64,000 nucleotides of DNA from an uncultured Armatimonadetes bacterium (lineage in GTDB: Bacteria; Armatimonadota; UBA5829; DTJY01). The notes beneath the pieces are model-generated. The model ran no database searches and was not told the origin of the DNA. It saw only the letters and a list, made by a program, of their open reading frames with translations. Below are positions 5,479 to 47,200 of the stretch, one piece after another; position 1 is the first letter of the stretch; the number at the start of each line of letters is the position of its first letter. Location of the stretch: assembly GCA_963717145.1 (NCBI GenBank), contig OY970325.1, positions 992,001-1,056,000 of the forward strand. Direction: 5' to 3'. Both the position numbers and the translations under genes were made by a program.

Positions 5479-5519
5479 GCAGGGAAGCAGGACGTTAGAT
5501 GGGCGAAGTCCCCTCTGCC

Positions 5520-5584
5520 GTAGTGGCCGTGCCTCCGTGCCGGCCATGCTACGTTGGAGGCCGGCACGGAGGCACGGCCACTAC
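5520..5584. repeat. GTAG REP doublet, family GTAGTGGCCGTGCCTC
   Basis: GTAGTGGCCGTGCCTCCGTGCCGGCC ... GGCCGGCACGGAGGCACGGCCACTAC; related copies at 43257 and 62711. Confidence 0.85.
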
Positions 5585-5618
5585 GGCAGAGGGTCTAGCG
5601 TCTGAAGTCTGCCGTTCC

Positions 5619-9525: not shown

Positions 9526-9987
9526 TTGTATAACGTCATTCTGCTCCCGCTGGATGGGTCGCCGCTCTCGGAGAGAGCCCTCCCCGATGCCACAGCCATC
9601 GCTCGCAGGTTTGGCGCCAAGCTCGCCCTATTCGCGGTGGTCGAGTCGCATGACGTCTACTCGCAGCCCGGCGTCGTCGCCCCGATCGTGGGCGACCAGT
9701 CAAAGACCGACGAGGAGGTTGCCGAGGTCCGCACTTATCTGCTTGGTTTCGCCGACAAGCTTAGGGATGAGGGTCTGGACGTCATCGTGGAGGTTCGTCG
9801 AGGTGACCCCGCCACCGAGATATGTGACTATGCCAGGAAGATCAGTGCCGACCTCATCGTCATGTCGACACACGGACGCTCGGGGATCCGCAGGTGGGTC
9901 TATGGCAGCGTTGCAGACCGTATTCTTCGCAGCGCCAGTGTTCCGGTGCTGCTCGTGCGGGCCTTGACCGACGAGGAGTCCCAGTAG
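9526..9987 (+). CDS. Universal stress protein
   Basis: ILLPLDGS, ADLIVMSTHGRSG..YGSVADRIL..PVLLV; TTG start after GAGGGG. Confidence 0.9.
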   Translation: MYNVILLPLDGSPLSERALPDATAIARRFGAKLALFAVVESHDVYSQPGVVAPIVGDQSKTDEEVAEVRTYLLGFADKLRDEGLDVIVEVRRGDPATEICDYARKISADLIVMSTHGRSGIRRWVYGSVADRILRSASVPVLLVRALTDEESQ

Positions 9988-10015
9988 AGCGTAAACACCC
10001 GGAGATGAGCCAGCC

Positions 10016-11191
10016 ATGGACCATGCAGCACTCGAACCCTCACGGATCATAATACAGATCGTCATCATCCTCTTTGCGGCGAAAGTCGTCGCCGAGATCG
10101 CGGTGCGCGGCGGCATGCCGGCGGTGCTCGGCGAGTTGCTGGCAGGAGTGATTCTTGGCGGCAGTCTGCTCGGTGTCATCAGACAGAATGAGGTGCTGAC
10201 AGTCCTGGCAGAGATCGGTGCGATCATCCTGCTCTTCGAGATCGGGCTGGAGAGCGACCTCGAGGAGTTTCTCAGGGTGGGCACATCCGCCTTCACCGTG
10301 GCTGTGATCGGCGTCATCGGCCCGTTTGCGGTCGGCTACGGGGTGGCCCTCGCTTTCGGATTGAACTCGATCACTGCGGTCTATATCGGCGCAACACTGA
10401 CGGCGACGAGTGTCGGAATCACGGCACGGACACTGGCGGATCTGGGCAGGCTTCATACAAACGAAGCGCGGATCATTCTCGGCGCCGCCGTGATCGACGA
10501 TGTGCTCGGTCTCATCATCCTTGCGGTTGTGTACGGCCTCGTGAAGACCAACTCGGTATCGTTCTGGGAGGTCAGCAAAATCACGATACTTGCAGTCGCG
10601 TTTCTGGCCGGAGCGATCGCCATCGGGATCCCTGTTGCGCCCCGTGTCATGAGTGTCGTGAAGAGGCTCCGAACGCGAGGTATACTGACCGTGAGCGCCG
10701 TCATCTTTTGCTTCGGGCTGGCATATATCGCGCACGAGCTGAGGCTGGCGACTATCGTGGGTGCATTCGCCGCCGGACTGGTGCTGGCAAAGACTGAAGA
10801 TCATGCTCACATTCAGGCGTGCATCAAGCCGGTCGCGGACATATTCATCCCCATCTTCTTTGTTATGCTCGGGGTGTCGGTTGACCTAGGCGCATTCAGC
10901 CCTGCGGGAGCCGAAGGTGGATCCCTTCTTCCGTTCACCGGTCTTCTCATCCTGGTCGCAGTGGTCATGAAGCTCTTTGCCGGCCTCGGAGTGCTGCGCC
11001 GAGGCGTCAAGAGGCTGACGGTCGGCATCGGGATGATACCGCGGGGCGAAGTCGGCCTCATATTCGCGAGCTTCGGCCTGACGAACCAGGTGATCAGTTC
11101 CGCTCTGTACTCCGCGATAGTGGCGGTGGTGTTCTTCACCACTTTCATCACCCCTCCTCTCCTCAAGTTGGCCTTCCGCAAGTCACAGTAG
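10016..11191 (+). CDS. CPA2 cation:proton antiporter
   Basis: LLFEIGLE, ATSVGITA, AAVIDDV, GMIPRGEV. Confidence 0.92.
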   Translation: MDHAALEPSRIIIQIVIILFAAKVVAEIAVRGGMPAVLGELLAGVILGGSLLGVIRQNEVLTVLAEIGAIILLFEIGLESDLEEFLRVGTSAFTVAVIGVIGPFAVGYGVALAFGLNSITAVYIGATLTATSVGITARTLADLGRLHTNEARIILGAAVIDDVLGLIILAVVYGLVKTNSVSFWEVSKITILAVAFLAGAIAIGIPVAPRVMSVVKRLRTRGILTVSAVIFCFGLAYIAHELRLATIVGAFAAGLVLAKTEDHAHIQACIKPVADIFIPIFFVMLGVSVDLGAFSPAGAEGGSLLPFTGLLILVAVVMKLFAGLGVLRRGVKRLTVGIGMIPRGEVGLIFASFGLTNQVISSALYSAIVAVVFFTTFITPPLLKLAFRKSQ

Positions 11192-11366
11192 GGGCGCGTT
11201 TCCACGCCCGCCCGGCTCCAATCCTACGCTCCAGTGCTGGCATCAAGCGCTCATGTCCACACCAGGTTGGCCGTATGAAGCCCAATCTGCGGTTTTCCGA
11301 TCGAAACACGGGCAATATGGAGTAAATCAGGTGTGTTTACTAGGTGACAATCCGTTAACATATATG

Positions 11367-21517: not shown

Positions 21518-22331
21518 CCTCCATGGCCGCCTGCGACCCGAGGGCGTCGAGATCATCCGGCGCGAGAAGGAGTCAGCGGGCGACTGCCTGCTTCTCGATG
21601 CCGGGGATGCGATCGCCTCGGGGAACATCAGCTATCGTCCCGGCGGTGAACCGGCTCTGGGGCTGATGAGCGAGGCCGGATACGATGCCATGGCGATGGG
21701 CAATCGGGAGTTCCACTTCCTCAAGCCGGGCCTGCAATCGAAGGTCAAGCTCGCCCGGTTTCCGGTGCTCTGCGCGAACATGGACTGCGGCCGTAGGGGC
21801 GATCCTTCAACGGTCGCCCGGTTTGAAACTTCGGCAGCGCCGCTGCGTTCTGCTATCGAAGCATCAAACCGGGCGACCGTTGAAGGATCACCCCTACGGC
21901 CGCACTATATAGTTGAGAGAGGCGGCTATCGAGTCGCCATCTTCGGCCTGACAGTCCCGATGATCACGAAGGAGATGCTCGCAAGCAGATTCAGCCCGTA
22001 CCGGTTCGAGGACCCGATCGAGACGGCGAAGGCGATCGTGCCCGCGTTAAGAGATCAGGCGGACTTGGTCATTGCCGTGACACACATCGGCATCAAGGCG
22101 GACGAGGCTCTCGCGCAGGAAGTGCCCGGCATCGACCTGATCGTTGGTGGGCACACGCACTCCGTCCTACATGAGCCGTTGATGATCGGCGGCACGAGCA
22201 TCGTTCAGGCCGGATGGTTTGCACATTTCCTGGGCAAGGTTCAGATAACCGGAGAACCCGGGAACCTGTCGATCACCGGCAGCCTTATCCCGCTTCAGCC
22301 GAGCGCGCGATCCAGGGACATTACGCCATGA
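21486..22331 (+). CDS. 5'-nucleotidase-type metallophosphoesterase (N-domain only) with an in-frame REP insertion
   Basis: ILHTNDLHG, LLDAGD, MGNREF, GGHTH. Confidence 0.87.
   Translation: MPNLTILHTNDLHGRLRPEGVEIIRREKESAGDCLLLDAGDAIASGNISYRPGGEPALGLMSEAGYDAMAMGNREFHFLKPGLQSKVKLARFPVLCANMDCGRRGDPSTVARFETSAAPLRSAIEASNRATVEGSPLRPHYIVERGGYRVAIFGLTVPMITKEMLASRFSPYRFEDPIETAKAIVPALRDQADLVIAVTHIGIKADEALAQEVPGIDLIVGGHTHSVLHEPLMIGGTSIVQAGWFAHFLGKVQITGEPGNLSITGSLIPLQPSARSRDITP
21793..21897. repeat. GTAG REP doublet inside a CDS
   Basis: GTAGGGGCGATCCTTCAACGGTCGCCC ... GGGCGACCGTTGAAGGATCACCCCTAC; same family as the intergenic copies at 36680 and 38230. Confidence 0.9.
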
Positions 22332-24199
22332 GTCATCCGTTGCTCGCACTGCCGATATTCGCCCCGATTGCGTTGATCTGCCTTGCTCTGGGAGGCATGA
22401 TCCTCCGCGCGCTCGGCATCAAGTCGGGAAGCCTGCTCGAGGCAAGCGTCTTCGGCACGGCCATCGGGTTCGGCGTTCTGAGCTACCTCGTGCTGGGGAT
22501 CGGACTGGCCGGCATGTTGACTGTGCCTGTCCTCATCGGCCTGCTGGTCGTTCTGGCGATCGTATCGTTCCCTGGAATGCGCATCCTCATTCCGGCTTTG
22601 GTGAGAGCCGTTCGGGAGCGCAGTGGGGCGAAGGTGCGGACGACTGACGCACTGATGCTGGTCGGCGCGAGTATCCTCGGCTCGCTGGCTCTCCTGGGGG
22701 CGCTTTCCCCGCCGGGACCGACGGATTGGGACGGCCTGGCATACCATCTGGCAGTCCCGAAGCTGTACCTGGCAGCGCATCGGATCTTCTACGTCCCATT
22801 CACGTCTCACTCGAACTTCCCGTTCCTGACCGAGATGCTCTATACCCTCGGCCTGGCGCTTCATGGCCCGGCGCTGGCGAAGCTCTTCCACTATGCGATG
22901 TTTATCGTGACCGCGGCGGGCATCTGCTCCCTGTGCAGACGACATATCAACCCGAGGGCGGGCGCGGTCGGCGCATTGCTCTTCATGAGCGTTCCACTCA
23001 TGGTCTGGGAAGCGGGAGTTGCCTACGCCGACATCACGACTGCGATGTACCTTCTGCTCGGCGTGTATGCCATCCTGAACTGGGAGGAGTCGGCCGATAG
23101 GGGATGGCTGCTCGCCGCGGGGATCGTGTCTGGGTTCGCACTCGGTACGAAGATGCTTGCGCTCGTTCCGATCGGGGCACTTCTCATGTGGGTGCTGTGG
23201 ATCGGGAACCGTAGGGGCGATCCTTCCACGGTCGCCCGCTGGGGGACGAGCATCAAATGGACCGCGCTGGTCGGCTTGCTGACGGCGCTCATCGGATCGC
23301 TGTGGTACATCAAGACATACTTGTATACCGGCAATCCGGTCTACCCGTTCTTCTACAACATCTTCGGCGGGCGCAACTGGAGTCAGGCAGACGCCGACAT
23401 TTACCACGCCGCTCAGCAGGCGATGGGAATGGGACGCTCCGTACTCGATTTCGTCATGATCCCCTGGAACGTCACGATGAACGGCGGGAAGTTCTTCGAC
23501 GCGCTACTGATCTACGGGCTGCTCGGGCCGGCGTTCCTCGGGCTGATCGCGGTGACCATACTCATCGGCAGGTCGGAAAAGGCGGTCGGACGGCTGGCAT
23601 TCGTCTGCGTTGTGTTCATCGCCGCCTGGTTCTTCCTCATGCAGAATGCACGGTACATCATCACGATCCTCCCGCTGCTCAGCGTGATCGCGGGAGTCGG
23701 GGCGGCCCGCGCCCTTAGGCAGTGGTCGGTCGGACGCGTGATCGTGAGCGTGTTCCTGGTCATCTGCGTTGGGCTCGGGATCTTCACGGGCTACGTGTTG
23801 ATCCTCGGGAGCGCTCGTGCGGCGCTCGGGATCGAGCCCGCCGAATCGTATCTCTCCCGGACCCTCGACTGCTACGACGCGGAGTCCTACGTGAACGATT
23901 TCACCCCGAAGGACGCCCGAGTGCTTCTCTTCGACGAGCCGAGGGGGTTCTATCTCGACAGGGCATACATCTGGGCCGATCCGGGGCATCACGAGTTGAT
24001 TCCGTGGGGCGACTTCCATTCCGGCGACGAGATGGTCCGGTTCTTTGCCGCGAAGGATTACACCCACGCGATCATCAACTGGAATTTCATGAAGGGCAAT
24101 GATGCATACGAGCAGCTCATCTTCCAGGCGATCGGCATGGGCCGGTTACTGGAGGTCTACGGCTCGAAGAGAGTCAGCGTCTACGAGATCAGACCATGA
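22328..24199 (+). CDS. Polytopic membrane glycosyltransferase (GT-C, ArnT/PMT-like)
   Basis: Many TM segments; WDGLAYHL, GFALGTK, WYIKTYLYTGNPVYP; ATG overlaps the upstream stop. Confidence 0.75.
   Translation: MSHPLLALPIFAPIALICLALGGMILRALGIKSGSLLEASVFGTAIGFGVLSYLVLGIGLAGMLTVPVLIGLLVVLAIVSFPGMRILIPALVRAVRERSGAKVRTTDALMLVGASILGSLALLGALSPPGPTDWDGLAYHLAVPKLYLAAHRIFYVPFTSHSNFPFLTEMLYTLGLALHGPALAKLFHYAMFIVTAAGICSLCRRHINPRAGAVGALLFMSVPLMVWEAGVAYADITTAMYLLLGVYAILNWEESADRGWLLAAGIVSGFALGTKMLALVPIGALLMWVLWIGNRRGDPSTVARWGTSIKWTALVGLLTALIGSLWYIKTYLYTGNPVYPFFYNIFGGRNWSQADADIYHAAQQAMGMGRSVLDFVMIPWNVTMNGGKFFDALLIYGLLGPAFLGLIAVTILIGRSEKAVGRLAFVCVVFIAAWFFLMQNARYIITILPLLSVIAGVGAARALRQWSVGRVIVSVFLVICVGLGIFTGYVLILGSARAALGIEPAESYLSRTLDCYDAESYVNDFTPKDARVLLFDEPRGFYLDRAYIWADPGHHELIPWGDFHSGDEMVRFFAAKDYTHAIINWNFMKGNDAYEQLIFQAIGMGRLLEVYGSKRVSVYEIRP
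23211..23237. repeat. Single GTAG REP inside a CDS
   Basis: GTAGGGGCGATCCTTCCACGGTCGCCC, 26/27 match to the family; translated as RRGDPSTVAR. Confidence 0.85.
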
Positions 24200-25488
24200 G
24201 AATGGAAACTCGAGAGTCGAAATCCGAGATCCGAAACTGGCGGATGTGGCTGGGGGGGATCATCGCCCTCCATCTGATTCTCGGCCTCGTCTACTGGAGT
24301 CATACCGCATACGGTGTCGCCCCTGATGAGGCGTTCCACGGCCTGTACGTTCGGCATCTCGCGGTCGATCACGCACTGCCCGTGTTCTCCGCCTCAGACA
24401 CGGGCGACTATGAGGCGCATCAGCCGCCGCTGTACTATGCGCTCGGCGTGCCGTTCTACCTCACTGCCAAGGCACTTGGGGTTGATGACCCGGGAGTCGC
24501 GGTGCGATTGCTCTCACTGATCCTGGGGGCGCTCTCGATCCTGGTCGTATACGGGACGATCAAGGCACTGATCCCCGGCCGCCAATCGACCGGTTTGGCC
24601 TGTGCAGGGTTCGTCGCATTACTTCCGATGCACCTCGCGCTGAGCAGTTCCGTGGGCAACGACATCCTGGCCGAACTGGTCTTCGGCGTCGCGTTGCTCT
24701 TGATGGTGAGATTGTTCGTAACCGGACCGACGATGTGGACCGGCCTTCTGCTCGGTCTTGTACTGGGGCTCGGATTGCTCGCGAAGACGACTTGCGCGCT
24801 CCTCTTCCCGGTGGCGGTCCTCACATACATACTGCTGTGGAGGCGGGGAACACTCATGGCGAGACGGGCAGTCTCAGAGATGGCGGCGATGCTCGGGATA
24901 AGCCTTCTGGTCGGCGGATGGTGGCTCGTCAGAAACGTTATGCTCTACGGCGATCCCTTCGCCCTGTCGCAATTCAACCAGGCGTTCTCGCACACGGCGA
25001 AACCGGAGTTCTTCCTCGTGGGGCAGGGGATGACCTGGACGGGCTATTTCATACTCGTTGGAGCATTGACCTTTGCCAGTTTCTGGGGTGTCTTCGGGCA
25101 CATGAGGGTCTTCATGCCGACGTGGGTGTATCTGTTTCTGGCGACCATCTCACTTGTCGCATTGGTCGGGAGCGTGCGATCATTCGTCGCGCTCAGGAGG
25201 GAATCGGTGGGGCAGAGGGACGCTTTGCTTGTTGTGATGGCGGTCGGGGCACTGGTATTACTCTCGTTCATACGCTTCAACCTGAGCTTCTTCCAGGCGC
25301 AGGGACGATATCTCTATCCGGCGATCATCCCGATCGCGCTGACCTTCGTGCTGGGCATCGAGCGCTTACTGCCGGAGAGGAACCGGACGCTGTCGGCCGC
25401 CGTAGTGAACGGTGGAATGCTGCTGTTGACCCTGACGGCGCTCGCCACCGCCGTCATCCCGAATCTGCCGTACCAGACACCGCCATGA
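24196..25488 (+). CDS. Membrane glycosyltransferase (GT39/ArnT-like)
   Basis: APDEAFH, YEAHQPPLYY, VGNDIL, GLLAKT, WWLVRN..YGDP, QAQGRYLYP. Confidence 0.78.
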   Translation: MRMETRESKSEIRNWRMWLGGIIALHLILGLVYWSHTAYGVAPDEAFHGLYVRHLAVDHALPVFSASDTGDYEAHQPPLYYALGVPFYLTAKALGVDDPGVAVRLLSLILGALSILVVYGTIKALIPGRQSTGLACAGFVALLPMHLALSSSVGNDILAELVFGVALLLMVRLFVTGPTMWTGLLLGLVLGLGLLAKTTCALLFPVAVLTYILLWRRGTLMARRAVSEMAAMLGISLLVGGWWLVRNVMLYGDPFALSQFNQAFSHTAKPEFFLVGQGMTWTGYFILVGALTFASFWGVFGHMRVFMPTWVYLFLATISLVALVGSVRSFVALRRESVGQRDALLVVMAVGALVLLSFIRFNLSFFQAQGRYLYPAIIPIALTFVLGIERLLPERNRTLSAAVVNGGMLLLTLTALATAVIPNLPYQTPP

Positions 25489-26237
25489 AGCTATCGGTCA
25501 TCATCCCGGTCTACAACGAGCGAGACACCATCGAGGCGACCCTCGACCGCGTTCGGCAGTCGGAGGTCGAGCAGGAGATCGTCGTCGTCGATGACTGCTC
25601 GACCGACGGCACGCGTGAACTGCTCCAGTCCATCTCCGCCTGCGCCCCTCCTTACGAAGGAGGGGCCGGCCAGCAGGCCGGGGGAGGTTTGCATGCGGAC
25701 GCCCCCTCTCCCTCTCCACCCATCCGCCTGGTGCTCCACGAAAGGAACATGGGGAAGGGGATGGCGATCCGGAGTGGACTCGAGCATGCCACGGGCGACA
25801 TCGTCATCATCCAGGACGCCGATCTCGAGTACTTCCCCTCAGACTACGCGGCCATGATCGCGCCGATCGTCAGCGGCGAGGCCGACGTCGTCTACGGCTC
25901 GCGATTCCTCGAGCAGCGTCCAGAGATGCGCCTGCCGAACTACGTCGCCAACAGGGTGCTCGCAATCGCGGCATCGGTGCTATTCGGCGCGCGGATCACC
26001 GACGAAGCCACCTGCTACAAGGCATTCCGCGCTGATCTTCTCAGGAGTATCCCACTCACGTGCAGGCGCTTCGAGTTCTGTCCCGAGGTCACCGCGAAGG
26101 TCCTCCGCCGGGGAATCAGGATCGAGGAGGTACCGATCCGCTATGAGGCGCGCACGGTCGAGCAGGGGAAGAAGATCGGCTGGTGGGACGGCGTCGTCGC
26201 CCTCTGGACACTGCTGAAGTACCGCTTTGTCCGATAG
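25485..26237 (+). CDS. GT2 polyprenol-phosphate glycosyltransferase with an in-frame repeat insertion
   Basis: LSVIIPVYNE, VDDCSTDGT, GKGMAIR, IQDADLEY, VYGSRF. Confidence 0.9.
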   Translation: MKLSVIIPVYNERDTIEATLDRVRQSEVEQEIVVVDDCSTDGTRELLQSISACAPPYEGGAGQQAGGGLHADAPSPSPPIRLVLHERNMGKGMAIRSGLEHATGDIVIIQDADLEYFPSDYAAMIAPIVSGEADVVYGSRFLEQRPEMRLPNYVANRVLAIAASVLFGARITDEATCYKAFRADLLRSIPLTCRRFEFCPEVTAKVLRRGIRIEEVPIRYEARTVEQGKKIGWWDGVVALWTLLKYRFVR

Positions 26238-26317
26238 TGGACACCGGCTTCTCCGTCGCCCGGCGACAGAGCCCCGCCTTTCACTGTGCCTGTCCCGAGT
26301 TCCCCACGGGCAAAGGG

Positions 26318-27340
26318 CTATGCCCGACGCCGTCTCATGCCCAGGAGTCCTACCAGTCCCCCAGCCAACGCGATAAGCGATGACGGCTCAGGAACCGTGG
26401 AGACGCGGAACCCGATACTGTTGGCCGAGTTCAACGGGTTCCAGCCGCCGCGAAAGGATGCCTGGATGCCTTGGACGTCGCCATTGAACGCACCGCCGCG
26501 CAGACCGCGCAAAGCGCGACCATCGTAGATTCTCGTAACAACGTCGTTCAACTCTTCGACGTTGCCGCCCTGATCGAACGTCCCGTAGGGACTGTTGGAG
26601 TCCTGGAACTCGCCGGCGACCGTAGTGGACATGCCGGAATCGATGGGGTAGGCGCCGGAGCCCGTGCGGTAGTTGGCGTTGTTGCCCGAGGCGTCGACCA
26701 TGTCCCGACCCGGGGCCGTGTCGCTGCTCGTGGCATACAGCCAGTAACCGGCGCTGGTACTGCCGCCCTTGTAGTAGGCAGCCTTATACCACTCGTCCTC
26801 GCTGGTGATTGCCCACTTCCATCCGGCGTTTCTCTGGATCGTGCGGCCATCAATGCCGTTGTAGCCGTCGAGAGTGTAGGCGCCGCGCTCGGTGGTGGAG
26901 GCATCCTGAAGTCCCGTCGGCTGGCCGTTACCGAGCCAGTTGGCGAAACGGCAGGAGTCCCAGTAGCTAACATAGTTCACCGGGCGGTTGACAAAGTCGC
27001 TTGCCACCGAGTAGGTGAAGCTGCCGGAAGCGCCGCTCTGCGTGATTCCACAGCCGTTGATGGTGTTTGACATGCCGATGTAGTACAGTCCGTATATGTC
27101 GGTGGCTGCTACGGCGTTGAGGAATGCGGTGTACTGCCCGGCGGTCACCTCGTACTTGCCGATGCTGTAGTTGTAGCCCACCGAGCCATAGCCGGTGGTG
27201 CCGTCATACATCATCACCCGGGTGTCAGCCGCATTACCCACGTCGCCAACGGGAACGGTCTCGATGGTGATGCTCGCCTGAGCGGCGATACCCATACCCA
27301 GCAGCATAAGCGCCGCCGTTACTGCGAATAACCTCTTCAT
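26318..27340 (-). CDS. FGE/SUMF1-fold PEP-CTERM surface protein, copy F
   Basis: Signal peptide; IGKYEVT, EDEWYKAAY, YGTFDQGGNV, RGG, GFRV; VPEP-TM-RRRRA. Confidence 0.9.
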   Translation of the reverse strand: MKRLFAVTAALMLLGMGIAAQASITIETVPVGDVGNAADTRVMMYDGTTGYGSVGYNYSIGKYEVTAGQYTAFLNAVAATDIYGLYYIGMSNTINGCGITQSGASGSFTYSVASDFVNRPVNYVSYWDSCRFANWLGNGQPTGLQDASTTERGAYTLDGYNGIDGRTIQRNAGWKWAITSEDEWYKAAYYKGGSTSAGYWLYATSSDTAPGRDMVDASGNNANYRTGSGAYPIDSGMSTTVAGEFQDSNSPYGTFDQGGNVEELNDVVTRIYDGRALRGLRGGAFNGDVQGIQASFRGGWNPLNSANSIGFRVSTVPEPSSLIALAGGLVGLLGMRRRRA

Positions 27341-27404
27341 CCTTTTCCCTCCAAAGTGTTGTGGCCTGGCCGCGCGGATTCTAGTGCCCGCTTGCGGCAA
27401 ACGG

Positions 27405-28454
27405 CTATGCCCGACGCCGTCTCATGCCCAGGAGTCCTACCAGTCCCCCAGCCAACGCGATAAGCGATGACGGCTCAGGAACAGCGGAGACACGGAACCC
27501 GATGGCGCGTTCATCGCCCGACGGGTAGTAGTTGGGGTTGCTGTACGAGCCCCGGAGGCCGGAGTCGCGGAAACCGTCGAACCCACGCCGCGGATGACGC
27601 GATGGGCGTAATCCCCGTCACATGCAATAGTCTCGTTCCACTCCCAGACGTTGCCGCCCTGGTCGAACGTGCCGTAGGCGCTCGCTGAGTTCTCGAACTC
27701 ACCGACGTTGGTTCGGTAGTAGGGGCTGCCGATGCATCGGATCCGCCCATTGTGATGTAGTTGGCGCTGTTGCCGGGGTCTGTGGCCAGCACCTGGTTGG
27801 CCGGCGCGGTATTGCTCTGGGTGGGATAAGTCCCAGTAACCGGCGTTGGTACCGCCGCCCTTGTAGTATGCAGCCTTATACCACTCGTCCTCGCTGGTCA
27901 CCGCCCACCTCCCCCCGGCGTTTCTGCTGGATGGTGCGGCCATCATCGCCGTTGTAGCCGTCCAGGGTGTATGCGCCGCCCTCGGTGGTCGACGCGCTCT
28001 GCAGCCCTGTGGGCTGGCCGTTGCCGAGCCAGTTGGCGAAACGGCAGGAGTCCCAAAAGCTCACGTAGTTCACAGGCCTGTTCGCCCAGTCGGACGCCAC
28101 GCTGTAGGTGTAGCTGCCGGAAGTGCCGCTGCGCTTGATGTTGCAGCCACGGCTGTCGTTCACCGTGTCCATGTAAGTGTTGTACAGCCCGTAGGTGTCG
28201 GTGGCTGCCACGGCGTTCAGGAACGCGGTGTACTGCCCGGCGGTCACTTCATACTTGCCGATGCTGTAGTTGTAGTCCACCGAGCCGCAGATCCGATCAG
28301 GGCCATATCCCCCCCCCGGCACACTCGCTCCTGAGAGCTCGCCGGCATTGCCTGCGTTGCCGACGGGAACGGTCTCGATCGTGATGGCCGCCTGAGCGGC
28401 TAATCCCATAGCGAGCAGCACGATCGCCGCTGTTACTGCGAATAAGCTCTTCAT
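27405..28454 (-). pseudogene. FGE/PEP-CTERM copy E, frameshifted (pseudogene or assembly error)
   Basis: Full-length homology spread over several frames; indels near 27925, 27830 and 27585. Confidence 0.7.
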
Positions 28455-28518
28455 CCTTTTCCCTCCAAAGTGTTGTGGCCTGGCCGTGCGGATTCTAGTG
28501 CCCGCTTGCGGCAAAGGG

Positions 28519-29562
28519 CTATGCCCGACGCCGTCTCATGCCCAGGAGTCCTACCAGTCCCCCAGCCAATGCGATGAGCGATGACGGCTCAGGAACTGCG
28601 GAGACGCGAAAACCGAAAGAGCGGTCCTCGTCCGACACGTAGCGGCTGGCGCGACACGAGGCCCGGAGGTGGTAGTCGCCAGGACTGTTGAACGCGCCGC
28701 CACGCACGCCGCGATCGGCGTACCCGGCATATACAATAGCCTCGTTCCACTCAAACACGTTGCCCCCCTGGTCGAACGTGCCGTAGGCGCTTGCTGAGTT
28801 CTCGAACTCACCTACGTTGGTTCGAGAATAGGGGCCGCCGATGCAGAAGGTCTCGTCTGGAAGGGTGACGTAGTTGGCGCTGTTGCCGGGGTCTGTGGCC
28901 AGCACCTGATTGGCCGGCGCGGTGTTGCTCTGAGTGGGATACAGCCAGTATCCGGCGCTGGTACTGCCGCCTTTGTAGTATGCAGCCTTATACCATTCGT
29001 TTTCGCTCGTCAACAACCACTTTGCCGTCGACCCCTCATACCAAGTCTTCCGCTGGGCAGCAGTGGGTATGGTGACGGTCCCGGAATTGACACCGCCGCC
29101 GGTGATCAAATAGCTTCCCGATTCTGTGCTGCCACTTCCCTGGCCGTTAGTCAGCCAGTTTGCAAAGCGCAGCGTGTCATACCAGGACACGTAGTTGACC
29201 GGCCTGTTCGCCCAGTCGGATGCAACACTGTAGCTGTAGTTGCCGCTTGCGCCGGTGCGCTTGATGTTGCAGCCGCGGAGGTCGTTCACCGTGTCCATCT
29301 TCGTGTTGTACAGCCCGTATGTGTCGGTAGCTGCCACCGCATTGAGGAAGGCAGTGTACTGTCCGGCGGTCACTTCATACTTGCCGATGCTGTAGTTGTA
29401 GCCGACTGAACCGTAGCCGGTAGTGCCATCGTCCATTACGCGGGTATCAGGCGCATTTCCCACGTTGCCGACAGGAACGGTCTCGATCGTGATGGCCGCC
29501 TGAGCGGCGAGTCCCATACCCAGCAGCACGAGCGCCGCCGTTACTGCGAATAACCTCTTCAT
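28519..29562 (-). CDS. FGE/SUMF1-fold PEP-CTERM surface protein, copy D
   Basis: Same motifs as copy F; intact ORF. Confidence 0.9.
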   Translation of the reverse strand: MKRLFAVTAALVLLGMGLAAQAAITIETVPVGNVGNAPDTRVMDDGTTGYGSVGYNYSIGKYEVTAGQYTAFLNAVAATDTYGLYNTKMDTVNDLRGCNIKRTGASGNYSYSVASDWANRPVNYVSWYDTLRFANWLTNGQGSGSTESGSYLITGGGVNSGTVTIPTAAQRKTWYEGSTAKWLLTSENEWYKAAYYKGGSTSAGYWLYPTQSNTAPANQVLATDPGNSANYVTLPDETFCIGGPYSRTNVGEFENSASAYGTFDQGGNVFEWNEAIVYAGYADRGVRGGAFNSPGDYHLRASCRASRYVSDEDRSFGFRVSAVPEPSSLIALAGGLVGLLGMRRRRA

Positions 29563-29626
29563 CCTTTTCCCTCCAAAGTGTTGTGGCCTGGCCGTGCGGA
29601 TTCTAGTGCCCGCTTGCGGCAAAGGG

Positions 29627-30640
29627 CTATGCCCGACGCCGTCTGATGCCCAGGAGTCCTACCAGTCCCCCAGCCAATGCGATGAGCGATGACGGCTCAG
29701 GGACTGCGGAGACACGGAACCCGACAATGCTCGCCTCCGGCGGCCAGAAGGTGTAGCGCCGTGATGCCTGGAGGTAGATGACCTGGTGAGTGAACGAGCC
29801 GCCGCGGGTAAGGCGAAAGGTGTAATCCCCGTCGATAGACAGAATAGCCTCGTTCCACTCCGATACATTGCCACTCTGGTCGAACGTGCCATAGGGACTT
29901 TCGGAGTTCTGGAACTCACCGACCTCGGTCCGGTAGTACGGACTACCGATAAGGAGGCTGTTGCTGTAATAGTTGGCATTGTTGCCTGAGGCGTCGGCCA
30001 TGTCCCGACCCGGGGCCGTGTCGCTGCTCGTGGGATACAGCCAGTACCCGGCGCTGGTACTGCCGCCCTTGTAGTATGCAGCCTTATACCACTCGTCCTC
30101 GCTCGTCACAGCCCAGTTCCATCCTGCGTTGCGCTGGATGGCGCGCCCATCAGTGCCGTTGTAGCCGTTGAGTGTGTAGGCCCCATCCTCGGTGGTCAAC
30201 GCGTTCTGCAACCCTGTGGGCTGGCCGTTACCGAGCCAGTTGGCGAACCGGCACGAGTCCCAATAGCCAACGAAGTTCACAGGCCTGTTCGCCCAGTCGG
30301 AGGCTACGCTGTAGGTGTAGCTGCCGGAACTGCCGCTGCGCTTTATGTTGCAGCCATAGGGGTCGTTCACCGTGTCCATGTAAGTGTTGTACAGGCCGTA
30401 TGTGTCGGTGGCTGCCACGGCGTTGAGGAATGCGGTGTACTGTCCGGCGGTCACTTCATACTTGCCGATGTTGTACTTGTAGCCCACAGAGCCGTAGCCG
30501 GTAGTGCCATCATTCATTACCCGGGTGTCAGGCGCATTCCCCGAGTCAGCAACGTAAACGGTTTCGATGTCGATCGCCTGAGCGGCGAGTCCCATACCCA
30601 GCAGCACGATCGCCGCTGTTACTGCGAATAAGCTATTCAT
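29627..30640 (-). CDS. FGE/SUMF1-fold PEP-CTERM surface protein, copy C
   Basis: Same motifs as copy F; intact ORF. Confidence 0.9.
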   Translation of the reverse strand: MNSLFAVTAAIVLLGMGLAAQAIDIETVYVADSGNAPDTRVMNDGTTGYGSVGYKYNIGKYEVTAGQYTAFLNAVAATDTYGLYNTYMDTVNDPYGCNIKRSGSSGSYTYSVASDWANRPVNFVGYWDSCRFANWLGNGQPTGLQNALTTEDGAYTLNGYNGTDGRAIQRNAGWNWAVTSEDEWYKAAYYKGGSTSAGYWLYPTSSDTAPGRDMADASGNNANYYSNSLLIGSPYYRTEVGEFQNSESPYGTFDQSGNVSEWNEAILSIDGDYTFRLTRGGSFTHQVIYLQASRRYTFWPPEASIVGFRVSAVPEPSSLIALAGGLVGLLGIRRRRA

Positions 30641-30704
30641 CCTTTTCCCTCCAGAGTGTTGTGGCCTGGCCGTGCGGAGTCTATTGCCCGCTTGCGGCAA
30701 AGGG

Positions 30705-31709
30705 CTATGCCCGACGCCGTCTCATGCCCAGGAGTCCTACCAGTCCCCCAGCCAATGCGATAAGCGACGACGGCTCAGGAACCGCGGAGACACGGAACCC
30801 GAGATGGAGGCCCTCGTACGTCGGGTCGCTGGTACTCCAGATCCCTGCCAAAAGGGGGAAGCTGCCGTCGTAGTTGAACGAACCGCCACGCCGGACGCGA
30901 CGGGCGCCCCACATGGCCTCGTTCCACTCCCAGACGTTGCCGCCCTGATCGAATGTGCCGTAGGGACTCTCGGAGTTCTGGAACTCGCCGGCGACTGTAA
31001 AGTACTTGCCGGAGTCGATGGGGTAGGTGCCAGAGCCATAGCCAGGGTAGTAGTAGAGTTGGCGTTGTTACCGAAGGCGTCGGCCATGTCATTACCCGGG
31101 GCCGTGTCGCTGCTCGTGGGATAATCCCAGTATCCGGCGCTGGTACTGCCACCCTTGTAGTACGCAGCCTTATACCATTCGTTCTCGCTGGTGATCGCCC
31201 ACCTCCAGTCCGCCTCGCGGTTGACCGCCATAAGCTGGGCATCCGTCGTCGCGCCGTTGAGGTAGTACGCCCCGTCCTCGGTAGTCGCCAAGCCCTGTAC
31301 GCCCGTCGGCTGGCCGTTGTGCAGCCAGTTGGCGAAACGGGCCGAATCGCCCCAAGAAACGTAATTCACCGGCCGGTTCGCCCAGTCGGAGGCCACGCTG
31401 TAGGTGTAGCTGCCGGATGCGCCGCTGCGCTTGATCTTGCAGCCATAGGAGTCGTTCACCGTGTCCATGTACGTGTTGTACAGCCCGTAGGTGTCGGTGA
31501 CGGCCACGGCGTTGAGGAACTCGGTGTACTGTCCGGCGGTCACTTCGTACTTGCCGATGTTGTAGTTGTAGCCGACCGAGCCGTAGCCGGTGGTGTCGGC
31601 CTGCATTGCCTGCATCGCCCACCGTGACGGTGTCGATGTCGATCGCCTGAGCGGCAATAGTCATACCCAGCAGCACGAGCGCCGCCGTTACTGCGAATAA
31701 CCTCTTCAT
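30705..31709 (-). pseudogene. FGE/PEP-CTERM copy B, frameshifted (pseudogene or assembly error)
   Basis: Homology split across three frames; indels near 31600 and 31055. Confidence 0.7.
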
Positions 31710-31773
31710 CCTTTTCCCTCCAAAGTGTTGTGGCCTGGCCGCGCGGATTCTAGTGCCCGCTTGCGGCAAACGG

Positions 31774-32796
31774 CTATGCCCGACGCCGTCTCATGCCCAG
31801 GAGTCCTACCAGTCCCCCAGCCAATGCGATGAGCGATGACGGCTCAGGGACTGCGGAGACACGGAACCCGATGCCGATGTCCTCGAGGAGCGGGTTGACG
31901 TTGCCGCGGAACGACGACTGCAGGGAGTTGCCGTTGCCGATGAACGAACCACCGCGCAGGCCGCGATAAGCGTCATAAAGCAAAGCCTCGTTCCACTCCC
32001 ACACGTTGCCGCCCTGATCGAACGTGCCATAAGGGCTGTCGGAGTTCTGGAACTCGCCGGCGATCGTGGTGTACTTGCCGGAGTCGATGGGGTAGGCGCC
32101 ATTGCCCGTCCAATAGTTGGCGTTGTTGCCGGAGGCGTCGGCCATGTCCCGACCCGGGGCCGTGTCGCTGCTCGTGGGAAACTCCCAGTATCCCGCGTTG
32201 GTACTGCCGCCCTTGTAGTATGCAGCCTTATACCACTCGTCCTCGCTGGTGATCGCCCACGTCCAGCCTGCCTTGCGCGTTACGGCATTCAGTGCGGCAC
32301 TGGTCGTTGCGCCATTGAGGTAGTACGCCCCGTCCTCGGTGGTCGCCAGGCCCTGTGCGCCCGTCGGCTGGCCGTTGTGCAGCCAGTTGGCGAACCGCGC
32401 AGAGTCGCCCCAGGAGACGTAGTTGACCGGGCGGTTGACGAAGTCAGTCGCCACCGAGTAGGTGTAGCTGCCGGAAGAGCCACCCCGCGTGATCCCGCTC
32501 CCATAGTCGGTACGCGACATGTCCGCGTTGTAGAGCGCGTACGTGTCGGTGGCTGCTACGGCATTGAGGAACGCTGTGTACTGCCCGGCGGTTACTTCAT
32601 ACTTGCCGATGTTGTAGCTGTAGCTCACGGAGCCGCAGATTCTGTCCGGGCCATATCCCCCGGCCCCTGCGCCGGACAGCTCCCCTGCGTTTCCCGCGTT
32701 GCCGACGGGAACGGTCTCGATCGTGATGTCCGCCTGGGCGGACAATCCCATACCCAGCAGCACGAGCGCCGCCGTTACGGCAAAGACCTTATTCAT
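31774..32796 (-). CDS. FGE/SUMF1-fold PEP-CTERM surface protein, copy A (promoter-proximal)
   Basis: Same motifs as copy F; intact ORF. Confidence 0.9.
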   Translation of the reverse strand: MNKVFAVTAALVLLGMGLSAQADITIETVPVGNAGNAGELSGAGAGGYGPDRICGSVSYSYNIGKYEVTAGQYTAFLNAVAATDTYALYNADMSRTDYGSGITRGGSSGSYTYSVATDFVNRPVNYVSWGDSARFANWLHNGQPTGAQGLATTEDGAYYLNGATTSAALNAVTRKAGWTWAITSEDEWYKAAYYKGGSTNAGYWEFPTSSDTAPGRDMADASGNNANYWTGNGAYPIDSGKYTTIAGEFQNSDSPYGTFDQGGNVWEWNEALLYDAYRGLRGGSFIGNGNSLQSSFRGNVNPLLEDIGIGFRVSAVPEPSSLIALAGGLVGLLGMRRRRA

Positions 32797-32866
32797 CCTT
32801 TTCCTCCATTGCGCTGTAGCGGGCGGCTGCTCTTACGGCGGCCTGCCATCAGTCATAGTCTGTACT

Positions 32867-32894
32867 ATTTTACACAGCCACCCAAATGTGTCAA
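32867..32894 (-). promoter_or_regulatory. Sigma70-type promoter at the head of the PEP-CTERM array
   Basis: Minus strand TTGACA-16 bp-TAAAAT. Confidence 0.65.
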
Positions 32895-33040
32895 GAAGAA
32901 ACATGCGCGTAATCCGGAAACTGAGCGTGGCGACGCTCAAAAACTGGTACTATTACCTGGTTACCGTGTTCAACTCCAGACAGACTCAGGCTCTCGGTTC
33001 CGGTCCCCGAACACCCAGCACCCTCCGCCGCTCCCGCCGG

Positions 33041-33069
33041 TTGCGGATCACCCATCGGTGTGATATAAT
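33041..33069 (+). promoter_or_regulatory. Sigma70-type promoter for the endonuclease III gene
   Basis: TTGCGG-17 bp-TATAAT with extended TGn. Confidence 0.6.
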
Positions 33070-33093
33070 CGGCGAAACTGGAGTTCGCTCAGC

Positions 33094-33759
33094 ATGGATC
33101 GAATTGCGGATATATGCGCCTTGCTCGATGGGGAGTACGGGCGGCCTGATACCAAACCGAGGTATGGGCCGCTTGACGAGTTTATACTGACCATTCTCTC
33201 GCAGAACACATCCGCGGCGAACTACACCACAGCGTTCGATCGGCTTCGCGAGCAGTTCCCCGAATGGGAAACCGCCAGGACGGCTCAGGTCGATCAGATC
33301 GAGGCTGCAATCCGTCCCGGCGGCCTGGCGAGGATCAAAGCGCCGAGGATTAAGCAGGCGCTGAACGATATCATGGAGCGCACCGGAGCGCTGAGCCTCG
33401 ACTTCCTGGCCGAGATGCCGGATAACGATGCGCGAGAGTATCTCATGCGGTTCGATGGAGTCGGCATCAAGACCGCGTCGTGCGTGCTGATGTTCTCGCT
33501 CAACAGGCCGGTACTGCCGGTGGATACGCACGTGCATCGGATATCCCAGCGCCTGGGGCTGATCGGGAAGCGTGAATCAGCGGAGTCAGCGCACCACACT
33601 CTGCAGGCGATGGTTCCGGACGATCTGGTATACTCGTTCCACGTGAATGTCGTGACTCATGGCCGCAGAGTCTGTAAGGCGCAGAGCCCATTGTGCGATG
33701 CATGCGTGCTGCTTCACATCTGCGGTCACGGGCAAATGCTGCTGTCGGGAAGTACATGA
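33094..33759 (+). CDS. Endonuclease III-like HhH-GPD glycosylase
   Basis: TILSQNT, GVGIKTA, PVDTHV, CKAQSPLCDACVLLHIC Fe-S motif. Confidence 0.9.
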   Translation: MDRIADICALLDGEYGRPDTKPRYGPLDEFILTILSQNTSAANYTTAFDRLREQFPEWETARTAQVDQIEAAIRPGGLARIKAPRIKQALNDIMERTGALSLDFLAEMPDNDAREYLMRFDGVGIKTASCVLMFSLNRPVLPVDTHVHRISQRLGLIGKRESAESAHHTLQAMVPDDLVYSFHVNVVTHGRRVCKAQSPLCDACVLLHICGHGQMLLSGST

Positions 33760-38323: not shown

Positions 38324-38929
38324 ATGAGTATGAACCGAAGTCTGATAGTCGCGATCACCGGTGCGAGCGGCAGTATCTATGCCGTTCGATTTCTCGAGAG
38401 TATTCTGGAGCACTACGATCGCATCTATCTGACCGTCTCAGAGAATGCGGCGCCCGTCATCCGCACTGAGTTGGGAATCGACCTCCTCGGCGATGCCATC
38501 GACGCTCGGACATTCCTCGGGCGGGACTGCGACAAGATCGAGATGTGCTCCCCGCGTGACCTGTGTGCTCCTCCAGCCAGCGGATCGGTCCGATCTGATG
38601 GCATGGTGATTATCCCCTGCTCGATGGGCACTGCCGGTCGGATCGCCTCGGGCATATCGAACGACCTGACGACTCGCGCCGCCAACGTCTGCCTCAAGGA
38701 GCGCAGAAAGCTCATCATGGTGGTCCGCGAGACTCCCCTGAACCTCATCCACTTGCGCAACCTGACCCAACTGGCGGAGGCCGGTGCGACCATCCTGCCG
38801 GCATCGCCCGCGTTCTACACGAATCCCAAGACGATCGAGGATATGGTCGAGTTCGTAGTCGCCAGAGTGATGCAGCAACTCGGACTCAGGCATCCCCACG
38901 CGCCTGAGTGGCATGGGATCGAGGAGTAG
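38324..38929 (+). CDS. ubiX: Flavin prenyltransferase
   Basis: AITGASG, ASGS, PCSMGT, LKERRKL..RETP, PAFY. Confidence 0.93.
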   Translation: MSMNRSLIVAITGASGSIYAVRFLESILEHYDRIYLTVSENAAPVIRTELGIDLLGDAIDARTFLGRDCDKIEMCSPRDLCAPPASGSVRSDGMVIIPCSMGTAGRIASGISNDLTTRAANVCLKERRKLIMVVRETPLNLIHLRNLTQLAEAGATILPASPAFYTNPKTIEDMVEFVVARVMQQLGLRHPHAPEWHGIEE

Positions 38930-38933
38930 CGGA

Positions 38934-39789
38934 ATGGCATCCAAGGTTCTGACCATCCTCGAGATGATCAAGTTCGAGCATACCGTTTTCGCGCTCCCGT
39001 TCGCACTCACGAGCGCGCTGCTTGCGGCCAACGGTATCCCTTCCGGTCGGGTCCTCTTGTGGATCCTGGTAGCGATGGTTGGCGCGCGAAGCTCGGCGAT
39101 GGCGTTCAACCGGATAGCCGATCTGCACTACGATCGCCTGAATCCAAGAACCGCACAGCGCGCGCTGCCGAAGGGGATTCTGAGAGTCGGTGATGTCTGG
39201 CTCTTTACGATGGCATCCGCGACGGTGTTCGTCTTCGCCTCGAAAGATGCTGAACACTCTGGCATTCGCTCTGTCACCAGTCGCGCTGCTCGTCATCCTT
39301 GGCTATTCTTACACGAAGCGGTTCACGTCGCTCTCTCATCTCGTGCTCGGACTGGCGCTCGGGATCGCTCCCGTCGGCGCATGGATCGCCGTCACCGGGC
39401 GGCTCGATTTCGCGCCGATGGTGTTGTCGGCGGCGGTGATGTTCTGGACAGCGGGCTTCGATGTCATCTATGCCCTCCAGGACCTGGAGTTTGATCGCGA
39501 GCATGGCTTGTTCTCGATCCCCAAGGCGCTCGGACCGGCAAGGGCGCTGCAGATGTCCCGTGTCTTCCACCTGGCGACCGTCGGCCTGCTGGCCTGGTTC
39601 GGGGTGGTGATTGGATTGGGAACGACCTATTGGATCGGCATCGCGTTCGTCGGCGTTCTGCTCGCCTACGAGCAGAGCCTGGTCAAGCCGGATGATTTCA
39701 GTAAGGTCAACGTGGCATTCTTCAATACGAATGGACTGGTCAGCATCGGGTTCCTCGGATTCACGATACTAGATATCATTGCGCGCTAA
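38934..39789 (+). CDS. UbiA-like prenyltransferase (MqnP type); one apparent +1 frameshift near 39243
   Basis: IKFEHTVFALPF, AMAFNRIAD..DRLNPRT in the first frame; YSYTKRF, GFDVIYALQD in the second; extra A in TCGAAAGATG. Confidence 0.85.
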
Positions 39790-44245: not shown

Positions 44246-47200
44246 ATGTTTATCCGACATATGAGAATTGTTCTGCTTCTTCTGACACTGATAGCCGCCA
44301 TTGGATGCGCCAATGGCGCTGGTTATACCGATACTATCGATCTTGCAGGCGATTGGCAGGTTCAGGCGCTGGACAGCAACTGGCGCGACCTGAAGGTTCC
44401 CGGCTCTCTGGAGTCGCAGATCGCCGATCTTCGCTCGTACTCCGGACAGGCCATCTACCGCAAGGAGTTACCGATCCCCGAATCATGGAGGGGCAAGCAG
44501 GTGCTCCTGAAGTTCGGCGCGGTAGACTGGTTGGCCGACGTGAGCGTCAACGGTGAGCACGTTGGCGCGCACGAGGGCGGCTACACGCCGTTCGAGTTCG
44601 ACATCACAGACCAAGTGAAGTTCGCTGAATGGAACGACCTGCAGGTGACCGTTACCGACGCCACGCCGGATCACCCGTTCGGCAACATCGTATTCGACGA
44701 GATTCCTCACGGGAGACAGGGCTGGCACGGCGTTCAGAAGCGGGATCTGGCAGAGTGTGACACTCGAGGCCGTCGAGCCGGTCAGTGTCGCCAGGATTCG
44801 CGTGACGCCGCTCACCGAGTACTCGGCCGTCTCCGCGAGCGTCTCCCTGAGCCGGCCTTCCGCTTCCGGGGAGCTGCGCCTGATCGTTCTCGGCGAAGGA
44901 GCGGCTCTTCGCACTACGGTGATCCCACTCCAAGCCGATCAGACGGACTATGAAACGGAGATCAAGCTGGATGCCCCGAAGTCCTGGACGCCGGACAGCC
45001 CTTACCTGTACAGACTTCAGGCCAGGGTGAAGATCGGGGACTACCAGATGGATCCTGAGGTCGTCGAGTTCGGGATGCGCAAGATCGAGGTGAAGGACAA
45101 CCGAATCTATCTCAACAACGAGCCGATCTTCGTGAGCGGAGTGGTCGATCAGGACTACTATCCGCTGAGCGAGTACACTGCGCCATCCGACGAGTTCCTG
45201 CGGGCCCAGTTCCAGCGCGCGAAGCACATGGGCATCAACCTGATCCGATGCCAGGCCAAGATACCCGATCCGCGATATCTCGCATGGGCCGACAGGGTGG
45301 GGCTGATCGTGTGGTACGAGATGCCGGGCTTCGGCAAGCTGACCGAGCGATCGCAGTCCCGATCGAAGGCACTGCTGACCGAGGCACTGCATCGTGACTA
45401 CAACCACGCGTCGCTCTGCATCGTCAGCCTGTCGGGCGATGGGGGAGGAATCGACTCGGGCAACGCTGAGCACCGAACGTGGCAGCGCGTGATGTACGAG
45501 AAGGCGAAGGAACTCGATCCGACGCGCTTGATCATCGACAACTCGTCGAGCGACAGCTACCACATCAAGACAGACATAGAGGACCGTGAGGACAGCACCC
45601 TGATCTCAGGAAGCCCGAAGGAGTTCGCCGGTTGGATCTCCAATCTGGTAGATCACCCGGGGGCATCGTTCTCACCGCTGGGCGACTCCGCGAGACGAGG
45701 CTGGGAGCCGCTCCTGGTCTCGAGCACCGGCAACTGGGGACTGCCCAAGATCAGCGACATCAAAAAGACTTACAGAGGCGATCCCTGGTGGTCGAGTCGG
45801 GCAGCGGCTCAGCGAAGGCCGGTGGCGTCGAACAGCGGTTCAAGGAGCAGGGGCTCGACCGCGTGTTCGGCTCGATGGATGCACTCTCCGAGGCCTGTCA
45901 GTGGCGACAGTGGGAGAGCCTGAAGTCCCGCATCGAGGAGATGCGCAGGCATCCGCAGATCGGCGGATATGTCCTCAGCGAGTTCTGCGACGTGAACTGG
46001 GAGGCCGACGGTCTGCTCGATGCCAACCGCAGCCCCAAGGTGTTCTACGACAAAGTGAGGTACGTCCAGGGCGCCGATGTCATCATCCCCGACTGGCAGA
46101 CTGTGAACTACTGGTCGGGCGCGCCGTTCTCCCTCGATGTCCTGGTCTCGCACATGTCCGGGGAGGAGTTGAAGGACTGCCGGCTCACATGGCGGCTGGA
46201 GGGATTCACTCCCGCCGGCGAGATCACGGCATCTCCGTCCTGATCTGGACGTGTCGAAGGTCGGCGCAATTAGTTTCACGTCCCATCGGTTGACAAGGCG
46301 ACGAAGGCCCGGCTGATGATGACACTCGCCTCTTCGTCGGGCCAGGTTATCGCCGAGAACTACCACGACATACTGTCTTCCCGGCTACCAGGCCCGCCTC
46401 GGGGACATCCGTTACCGTTTGGGACCCGGACGGCACGCTGAAGGACCTCCGCTCGCATCTCTCGATCTGCGGGCTACGCGGTGTTCGACGCGATGAACCA
46501 GGGGAGCAGAGTGGCGCTGACCACCGAATTCGACGACGAGGTGCGCGAACTTCGCGCTCAACGGAGGCCGCGTGATCCTCGTGGCGAACAGCGCTGACAG
46601 CATTCCCGATCTGACGAACAGCGACCTTGCCGTCATGCCCAGCGACGTTGCGGGCCCGTGGGCGGACTGGTCGAGATGCGTCATGTGGACACGCGGGGCG
46701 GGGCCGATGCGCGGGCTTTCCCTCGATGCGGTTCCCGGTTTCGAGCTTTCCGACATACGGCCGACTACCGTCTTGACCGGACTGGATGCCGCGATGAGAG
46801 GTGATGATGTATTCGCGGGCATGTTCGTCGGATGGCTGCACAGTCCGGTGGCGATCGCGGCGCAATTCAAGGCGGGTGACGGCAAGGTGCTCGCCACGAC
46901 TCTCGATCTGCTTCCCTCCTATGGAAGCGATCCGGCGGCAACGACTCTCCTCGGCGACATGATCGCTCACGCGGCCGGCAAGGATTTCAACCCGTCGCTC
47001 AAGATCGACCTGTCGCAGGTCGATGCAGTCAGTCCCGCCAGGGAGTTCGGCTCGCAGGGGCTGGCGGTTCACCACGGAGTCCCCCGATCAGGCATGGATA
47101 GAGGTCGACTTCAAGGACGATGGATGGAAGACGCACCGCCGGCGTCATCGGCACGAGCGCGAGGCCCGGGGCTCTGGTCCGAGCGGTCTGGGTGCCATCG

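Follow-up and report, generated by a model that had tools for sequence, protein, structure and literature searches.

A tandem array of six mosaic genes

The window analysed here, a 64-kb stretch of contig OY970325.1 from an uncultured Armatimonadetes bacterium, contains a tandem array of six homologous genes, designated copies A to F in order of transcription. The copies lie head-to-tail on the minus strand at 26318-32796 (Table 1), with units of ~1.07-1.11 kb apiece, and belong to a family of proteins with a formylglycine-generating enzyme (FGE)-sulfatase domain. All six units are full-length, and each has its own GGAGG ribosome-binding site, ATG start codon and signal peptide. A preliminary description of this DNA had reported combinatorial shuffling of five protein modules among six gene copies at 26560-32700, a range that sits within the array.

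The six genes are mosaics. All five module groupings of the preliminary description (M1 to M5) were found in the nucleotide alignment of the copies, and the conserved blocks that it named do separate the variable segments. Its further claim that the groupings conflict is supported by two kinds of test, both of which speak against a single tree. A pairwise homoplasy index (PHI)-type test (our own implementation, 235 informative gap-free columns) gave 0.349 compared with 0.443 ± 0.006 after permutation, and none of 2000 permutations was as low. Approximately unbiased (AU) tests of the 105 unrooted six-taxon topologies on five blocks left no topology accepted by all five and none accepted by four or more, so that a single tree for all segments, the outcome that the preliminary description had named as contrary to shuffling, was found nowhere among the 105. 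When the intact copies A, C, D and F were analysed alone, the PHI-type result was 0 of 5000.

Synonymous sites follow the modules. In M4, the pairs A-C, A-F and C-F each agree at 21 of 24 third codon positions, compared with 15-17 of 24 in pairs with D, and in M5 the pair A-F agrees at 17 of 20, compared with 8-10 of 18-20 in other pairs. The shared modules were therefore acquired by descent or exchange and not by amino-acid convergence. Coding identity between the copies is 70-80% overall at the nucleotide level; core tracts common to array copies are 85-97% identical, and the longest exact core runs are 35-49 nucleotides (nt). The M3 of copy D has no match at 70% coverage or more inside or outside the array, and the M4 of copy E is readable solely in another frame.

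The mosaic might be explained without recombination if the copies were ancient paralogue lineages whose modules came to look alike through parallel amino-acid evolution or uneven rates. The divergence between copies is indeed as deep as that to homologues in other genomes, and M4 and M5 types are linked across the family. However, incompatible sites cluster spatially, no one topology serves all blocks and third-position identity rises within the shared blocks. This explanation is already contradicted by the PHI-type, AU and third-position results, and we regard it as extremely improbable.

Table 1. Features of the six-copy array and its upstream flank (window positions, or alignment columns where stated).
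Feature	Position	Strand	Description
Copy A	31774-32796	-	Intact, 340 aa; signal peptide, FGE-sulfatase domain and PEP-CTERM
Copy A M1	32628-32685	-	
Copy A M2	32429-32532	-	
Copy A M3	32269-32428	-	
Copy A M4	32109-32180	-	
Copy A M5	32050-32108	-	
Copy A variable-region-like stretch	31871-31966	-	C-terminal part
Copy A homogenised tail	31774-31870	-	C-terminal part
Copy B	30705-31709	-	2 frameshifts
Copy B variable-region-like stretch	30802-30900	-	
Copy C	29627-30640	-	Intact, 337 aa
Copy C variable-region-like stretch	29724-29816	-	
Copy D	28519-29562	-	Intact, 347 aa
Copy D M3	29035-29200	-	Unique form
Copy D variable-region-like stretch	28616-28714	-	
Copy E	27405-28454	-	4 frameshifts
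Copy E variable-region-like stretch	27502-27602	-	
Copy F	26318-27340	-	Intact, 340 aa; last gene of the array
Copy F variable-region-like stretch	26415-26510	-	
Junction A/B	31602-31870	-	Last ~97 nt of coding sequence (GFRVS and PEP-CTERM), ~65-nt spacer with GGAGGG, signal-peptide region of B
Junction B/C	30533-30801	-	
Junction C/D	29452-29723	-	
Junction D/E	28344-28615	-	
Junction E/F	27230-27501	-	
Promoter candidate	32867-32894	-	Sigma-70-like, TTGACA-16 nt-TAAAAT, 11/12 matches; ~70 nt upstream of the copy A ATG
M1 grouping	alignment columns 226-241		A, E versus C, D, F; short form in B
M2 grouping	alignment columns 364-452		A, F versus B, C, D, E
M3 grouping	alignment columns 469-621		A, B versus C, E, F; D unique
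M4 grouping	alignment columns 728-780		D, E versus A, B, C, F
M5 grouping	alignment columns 816-858		A, B, F versus C, D, E

Module forms in other genomes

A protein search returned at least 8000 relatives, and a scan of species-representative genomes yielded 398 related stretches, from which 79 loci (numbered with the prefix L) were kept. Most of these come from metagenome-assembled genomes (MAGs) of Planctomycetota/Phycisphaerae and Armatimonadota, and 14 of the 79 have two or more copies. The best outside match among the relatives returned is 74% identical to copy C, which puts it as near to C as the neighbours of C in the array.

The alternative module forms recur in outside proteins, the short M1 of copy B included. 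When 173 outside proteins were classified by motif, they fell into 99 combination strings, a part of which include untyped modules, and all ten M1 by M2 type combinations are present. The adjacent M4 and M5 are partly linked across the family, types Q and V occurring only with type I. The full combination of copy C was seen once, that of E four times and that of F five times; those of A, B and D are absent among the 173 classified proteins. In several blocks, outside genes are as close to window copies as their array mates or closer, with nucleotide identities of 99% (M4, A and L013), 95% (M5, C and L013), 98% (M5, E and L061) and 96% (M1, B and L053/L059). Along the L013 gene the nearest window copy changes repeatedly. 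Because the same forms, combinations and close blocks occur in other genomes, the modules are old family-wide alleles, and mosaicism belongs to the whole family. The array itself has no syntenic counterpart among the 79 loci, where a tblastn search with nine flanking window proteins gave only two weak GT2 matches.

Homogenised junctions

The last ~97 nt of the genes are 93-99% identical among the six copies but at most 86% identical to any outside locus. The spacer and signal-peptide region that follows is 76-94% identical among copies, and exact runs of 51-92 nt are common to copies at the junctions. Concerted evolution is confined to the junctions and is private to the array; homogenised ends are absent from two comparable two-copy arrays, L053 and L051. 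Elsewhere in the family, what look like tandem copies are single long open reading frames (ORFs) with two or three FGE-sulfatase domains each (L017 1755-4686, L006 9877-11983, L036 2790-5022, L077 2049-4122 and L068 2659-5890). Together with the lack of homogenised ends in L053 and L051, these fusions mean that the architecture in the window is not a family rule.

Concerted evolution and gene conversion are a general phenomenon in bacterial tandem paralogue families. The array resembles such families in its array-only junction homogenisation and in having its exchange points in the conserved blocks of highest identity. It differs in that homogenisation stops at the core of the genes, where the variants are as divergent as those in other phyla.

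Protein domains and predicted fold

The FGE-sulfatase domain (PF03781) was detected in all four intact copies at 62.8-71.8 bits (cut-off 23.3) with E-values from 9e-20 to 5e-17 (A 9.1e-20, C 5e-17, F 2e-17), and three fragments of B and E that were searched gave partial matches. The PEP-CTERM domain (PF07589) was also found in all four, at 23.5-24.3 bits (cut-off 20.7; E-values A 5.3e-5, C 3e-5, F 4.1e-5), as was TIGR02595 at ~25 bits (cut-off 16). An AlphaFold2 model of copy A (predicted local distance difference test, pLDDT, 78; predicted template-modelling score, pTM, 0.83) has as its top PDB fold match 2Y3C, the Treponema denticola variable protein 1 (TvpA; E 1.2e-9), followed by FGEs. Over residues 191-300 of the model, which comprise M4, M5 and the variable stretch, pLDDT is 54-73 (means of 10-residue blocks).

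Catalytic FGEs need a conserved active-site cysteine pair in the C-terminal subdomain. In the window family the stretch equivalent to the cysteine-pair region is the hypervariable region, and neither the 4-copy alignment nor a 117-sequence alignment has a cysteine in its invariant or nearly invariant columns. Because no cysteine is conserved, members of the family are unlikely to be FGE enzymes. Source annotations name them 'formylglycine-generating enzyme' or 'SUMF1/EgtB/PvdO family nonheme iron enzyme', and such enzyme-type names are likely to mislead, since the family lacks a conserved cysteine and includes targets of diversity-generating retroelements (DGRs). The results given here should be of use in annotating proteins that now carry these names.

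Every window copy has a VPEP motif, a hydrophobic helix and an Arg cluster at its C-terminus, as do PEP-CTERM/exosortase substrates (PMC1569441). The locus differs from the setting of those substrates in that a scan of 45 window ORFs found no exosortase gene.

The C-terminal hypervariable stretch

The preliminary description did not cover a further variable part of the genes, a non-modular stretch of ~100 nt that lies between RGG[SA]F and GFRV and is beyond its module model. This is the most variable part of the genes, and it is hypervariable across the family too. All window pairs are only 50-65% identical here and have no modules in common.

The family is a DGR variable protein in some genomes. 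Three of the 79 loci (L015, L019 and L034) have, downstream of the family gene, a bAvd-like gene, a reverse transcriptase (RT) gene and a template repeat. The RTs have the RVT_1 domain and the IGNLTSQ...YMDD motif, and both bAvd and RVT_1 were confirmed in L015. The template/variable repeat pairs of the three loci are 132 nt long and 87-88% identical, and the template encodes an Asn-rich sequence. In L015, template and variable region mismatch at 14 of 32 A positions and at none of 67 other positions. Asn-rich template-like copies occur in five of the 79 loci; besides the three cassettes these are L025, an Armatimonadota MAG, and L027. The L025 copy (11107-11222) comes right after the terminator-like hairpin of a family gene (9941-11044), and no RT was found in ~10 kb upstream or ~4.7 kb downstream in the locus, so it may be an orphan template or one served in trans.

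The window C-termini look like present or former DGR variable regions. When the six C-termini are set against heterologous templates, 56-67% of template A positions differ, compared with 11-27% of the remaining positions (Fisher p 6e-7 to 9e-4 for the excess at A positions). The C-terminus of copy A is the nearest to these templates, with 7-9 mismatches at ~66 non-A positions, and 18 of its 24 codons are of the form NNC. The 3' end GGGTTCCGTGTCTCC...CCTGAG is common to the window genes and to the ends of the template and variable repeats of relatives.

According to passages of PMC5758913, no DGR target class is larger than that with an FGE-sulfatase C-type-lectin fold (category 'b'; 71 of 372), and both tandem multi-target cassettes and remote targets at distances above 100 kb are on record. 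TvpA is a member of this class. The window family shares with this class the FGE-sulfatase domain, a C-terminal hypervariable stretch, TvpA as top fold match, the absence of a conserved catalytic cysteine pair, and relatives in full target-bAvd-RT-template cassettes. It differs in that the window lacks RT, Avd and template repeat, its C-termini vary in length and at non-A positions, its proteins end in a PEP-CTERM anchor, and the mosaic lies in the scaffold upstream of the variable region. A full-text literature search returned no work joining 'diversity-generating retroelement' and 'PEP-CTERM', whereas nine papers connect DGRs with FGE-sulfatase.

Putative transcription unit

The promoter candidate upstream of copy A is the sole such site in 26100-33200, where shuffled sequence gives a mean of 1.8, and it is to be read as a consensus match only. 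Consensus scans of the same region found no promoter-like and no terminator-like site between the copies. Because there is one promoter-like site upstream of A and no terminator between copies, the six genes are likely to be co-transcribed in an operon-like manner, as judged from these scans.

Proposed recombination between diverged paralogues

We consider the best explanation of the locus, with a probability of roughly 0.65, to be a tandem paralogue array whose genes are an old patchwork produced by recombination between diverged paralogues, with homogenised junctions and DGR-type C-termini. The array would encode secreted, exosortase-sorted (PEP-CTERM) proteins with a predicted binding function, built on a non-catalytic FGE-sulfatase/C-type-lectin fold. 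Homologous recombination (gene conversion) would take place between diverged paralogues wherever identity runs allow, and its partners would be the array copies themselves, at least one more paralogue that the contig carries (P0035) and perhaps copies acquired by transfer. The exchange points fall in conserved blocks, where identity runs are long enough for strand exchange. At the junctions (3' tail, spacer and signal peptide), where exchanges would be neutral, they would pile up and give the recent homogenisation; exchanges that homogenise the core would be rare owing to divergence, or would be purged by selection for diversity. Selection on the diversity of a binding surface is most likely what keeps the core diverse.

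The shared core tracts are 85-97% and not ~100% identical, and the visible exchanges are therefore old. Nothing indicates a directed, high-frequency process, because there is no recombinase among the 45 neighbouring ORFs scanned, no silent-cassette layout and no shared core tract above this range. In the preliminary description, segmental gene conversion was held to build new variants from a small set of parts. Recombination between paralogues is the simplest cause of the mosaic, but the parts are not a small private set, since they are spread family-wide (99 strings in 173 proteins).

Several observations weigh against this reading. The promoter and terminator scans yield consensus matches, and the host phylum may fall outside their coverage. 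Much of the topological conflict rests on the frameshifted copies B and E; once these two are left out, the AU tests reject alternatives only in M2 and M5, and the AF|CD topology is kept in M3 (p = 0.12). Copy B changes frame where M1 begins, near 31600, and again between M4 and M5, at 31035-31055, with the net frame restored, and copy E has frameshifts near 27925, 27834, 27748 and 27586. Five of these six are in length-variable joints or no more than ~15 nt from a block boundary, a coincidence with a chance of ~0.01 by a rough, post-hoc estimate made by hand. It fits imprecise exchange and consensus errors alike. The UbiA-family prenyltransferase gene at 38913-39789 on the plus strand is also split by a frameshift (ORFs 38913-39494 and 39190-39789), which may point to assembly indel errors or to a genuine pseudogene. 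With frameshifts near block boundaries and a split gene elsewhere in the window, consensus or assembly errors in the repeat are possible, chiefly in B and E.

Taken further, these observations would make the mosaic wholly or partly an artefact of assembly or polishing, in which mixed reads were merged into a chimeric consensus, mainly in B and E. All six frameshifts are in B and E and none is in A, C, D or F, and reads could easily be mis-mapped at the junctions, which are near-identical over 150-270 nt. On the other hand, B and E hold segments of their own, namely their C-termini and the short M1 of B with its 96% match in L053/L059; the combinations of C, E and F were seen in independent assemblies; the intact copies retain the PHI-type signal by themselves; and the contig spans 5,366,867 bp. 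We judge an artefactual mosaic to be quite improbable. A G9 run at 28309-28317 on the minus strand, in M1 of copy E, is in frame, and no other G/C homopolymer in the window reaches a length of 8; the run could be prone to slippage or to sequencing error.

Other points against the preferred reading of paralogue recombination with DGR-type C-termini concern the C-termini themselves. The 64-kb window contains no RT, Avd or template-like copy. The NNC enrichment is modest when the four intact copies are pooled (59 of 96 codons compared with 607 of 1268, p = 0.011). The six C-termini range from 32 to 35 codons, and with this spread in length and their identities of 50-65% they are not all current targets of one template.

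A DGR elsewhere in the 5.37-Mb genome could nevertheless act on the C-termini as remote targets (in trans), the 3' junction being kept as a target-recognition sequence and module recombination forming a second layer. The status of the family as a DGR target in relatives, the common 3' end, the closeness of copy A to heterologous templates and its many NNC codons, the remote targets noted in PMC5758913 and the L025 template-like copy that has no RT nearby are all in keeping with this. However, of 7547 relatives of the L015 RT, none among the best 120 lies on the window's contig, which is weak evidence, since it covers the nearest RTs only; the C-termini are of unequal length with many non-A differences; third-position decay is seen in C, D and F; and a DGR would not account for the continuation of the homogenisation across the spacer and signal peptide. 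We think such remote targeting unlikely. An extended version, in which a trans-acting DGR rewrites the C-terminal loops, the junction serves as the retrohoming target, and recombination between paralogues, with B and E as donors, reshuffles the scaffold in a two-tier diversity system, seems a little less likely still.

Comparison with antigenic-variation systems

Segmental gene conversion generates antigenic variation at Borrelia vlsE, Anaplasma msp2, Neisseria pilE/pilS and Treponema pallidum tprK. Cassette-type systems of this kind have one expression site together with silent, truncated or promoterless donors. The array is like them in having variable segments with conserved flanks, clustered homologous copies and mosaic genes made by recombination. 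It is unlike them in having six complete genes in place of a single expression site with truncated donors, in the age of its exchanges, in sharing its parts with other species, and in its host, which is apparently free-living and whose nearest relatives are Armatimonadota and Planctomycetota MAGs. The defining layout and recent tracts were both looked for and neither was found; the array is not a cassette-type antigenic-variation system. The locus behaves as other recombining paralogue families do, and its proteins fall within the FGE-sulfatase class of DGR variable proteins.

The likeness to antigenic variation drawn in the preliminary description would imply a programmed system, with frequent directed conversion of segments in the array and with B and E as silent donors. 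The conserved flanks around a variable core, the two pseudogene copies and the G9 run in E, which could slip, agree with such a system. Against it, no copy is truncated, and each has its own ribosome-binding site, start codon and signal peptide; only one promoter-like site was found, and no terminator between copies; shared tracts are 85-97% identical; the combinations already exist in other genomes; and no RT, recombinase, invertase or transposase domain was found by Pfam in 45 neighbouring window ORFs. The likeness is thus not sustained, and we hold a programmed system to be very improbable.

Paralogue recombination with DGR-type C-termini moves the locus from a possible antigenic-variation-like system to a pair of known processes, gene conversion between paralogues and DGR-type hypervariation. 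The analysis further shows a very abundant family, with at least 8000 relatives, to be a DGR-target family with a modular, recombining scaffold. The family joins a PEP-CTERM anchor to an FGE/C-type-lectin domain in genomes of the Planctomycetota and Armatimonadota type, and it should be useful for studying how surface binding proteins diversify in free-living bacteria.

Neighbouring genes

The array is surrounded by genes with housekeeping or glycan-related roles, namely those for PMT_2 and GT2 transferases, an HhH-GPD glycosylase and the futalosine pathway, and by tig, clpP, clpX and lon. The split UbiA-family gene adjoins the futalosine-pathway genes. At 44757-46293 on the plus strand, the end of a glycosyl hydrolase family 2 gene overlaps the next ORF (45901-46293), which is 130 aa long and has no Pfam match, and this region may be another split gene.

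The HhH-GPD glycosylase gene (33094-33759, plus strand) lies beside the array promoter candidate, and in L025 an Fpg gene (5450-6226, minus strand) lies 3.7 kb upstream of the family gene. The presence of a DNA glycosylase gene near a family gene in both places is probably coincidence. Two PMT_2-type glycosyltransferase genes and a GT2 gene (22214-26237, plus strand) converge on the end of the array, and the glycan or exopolysaccharide setting of these genes fits PEP-CTERM proteins.

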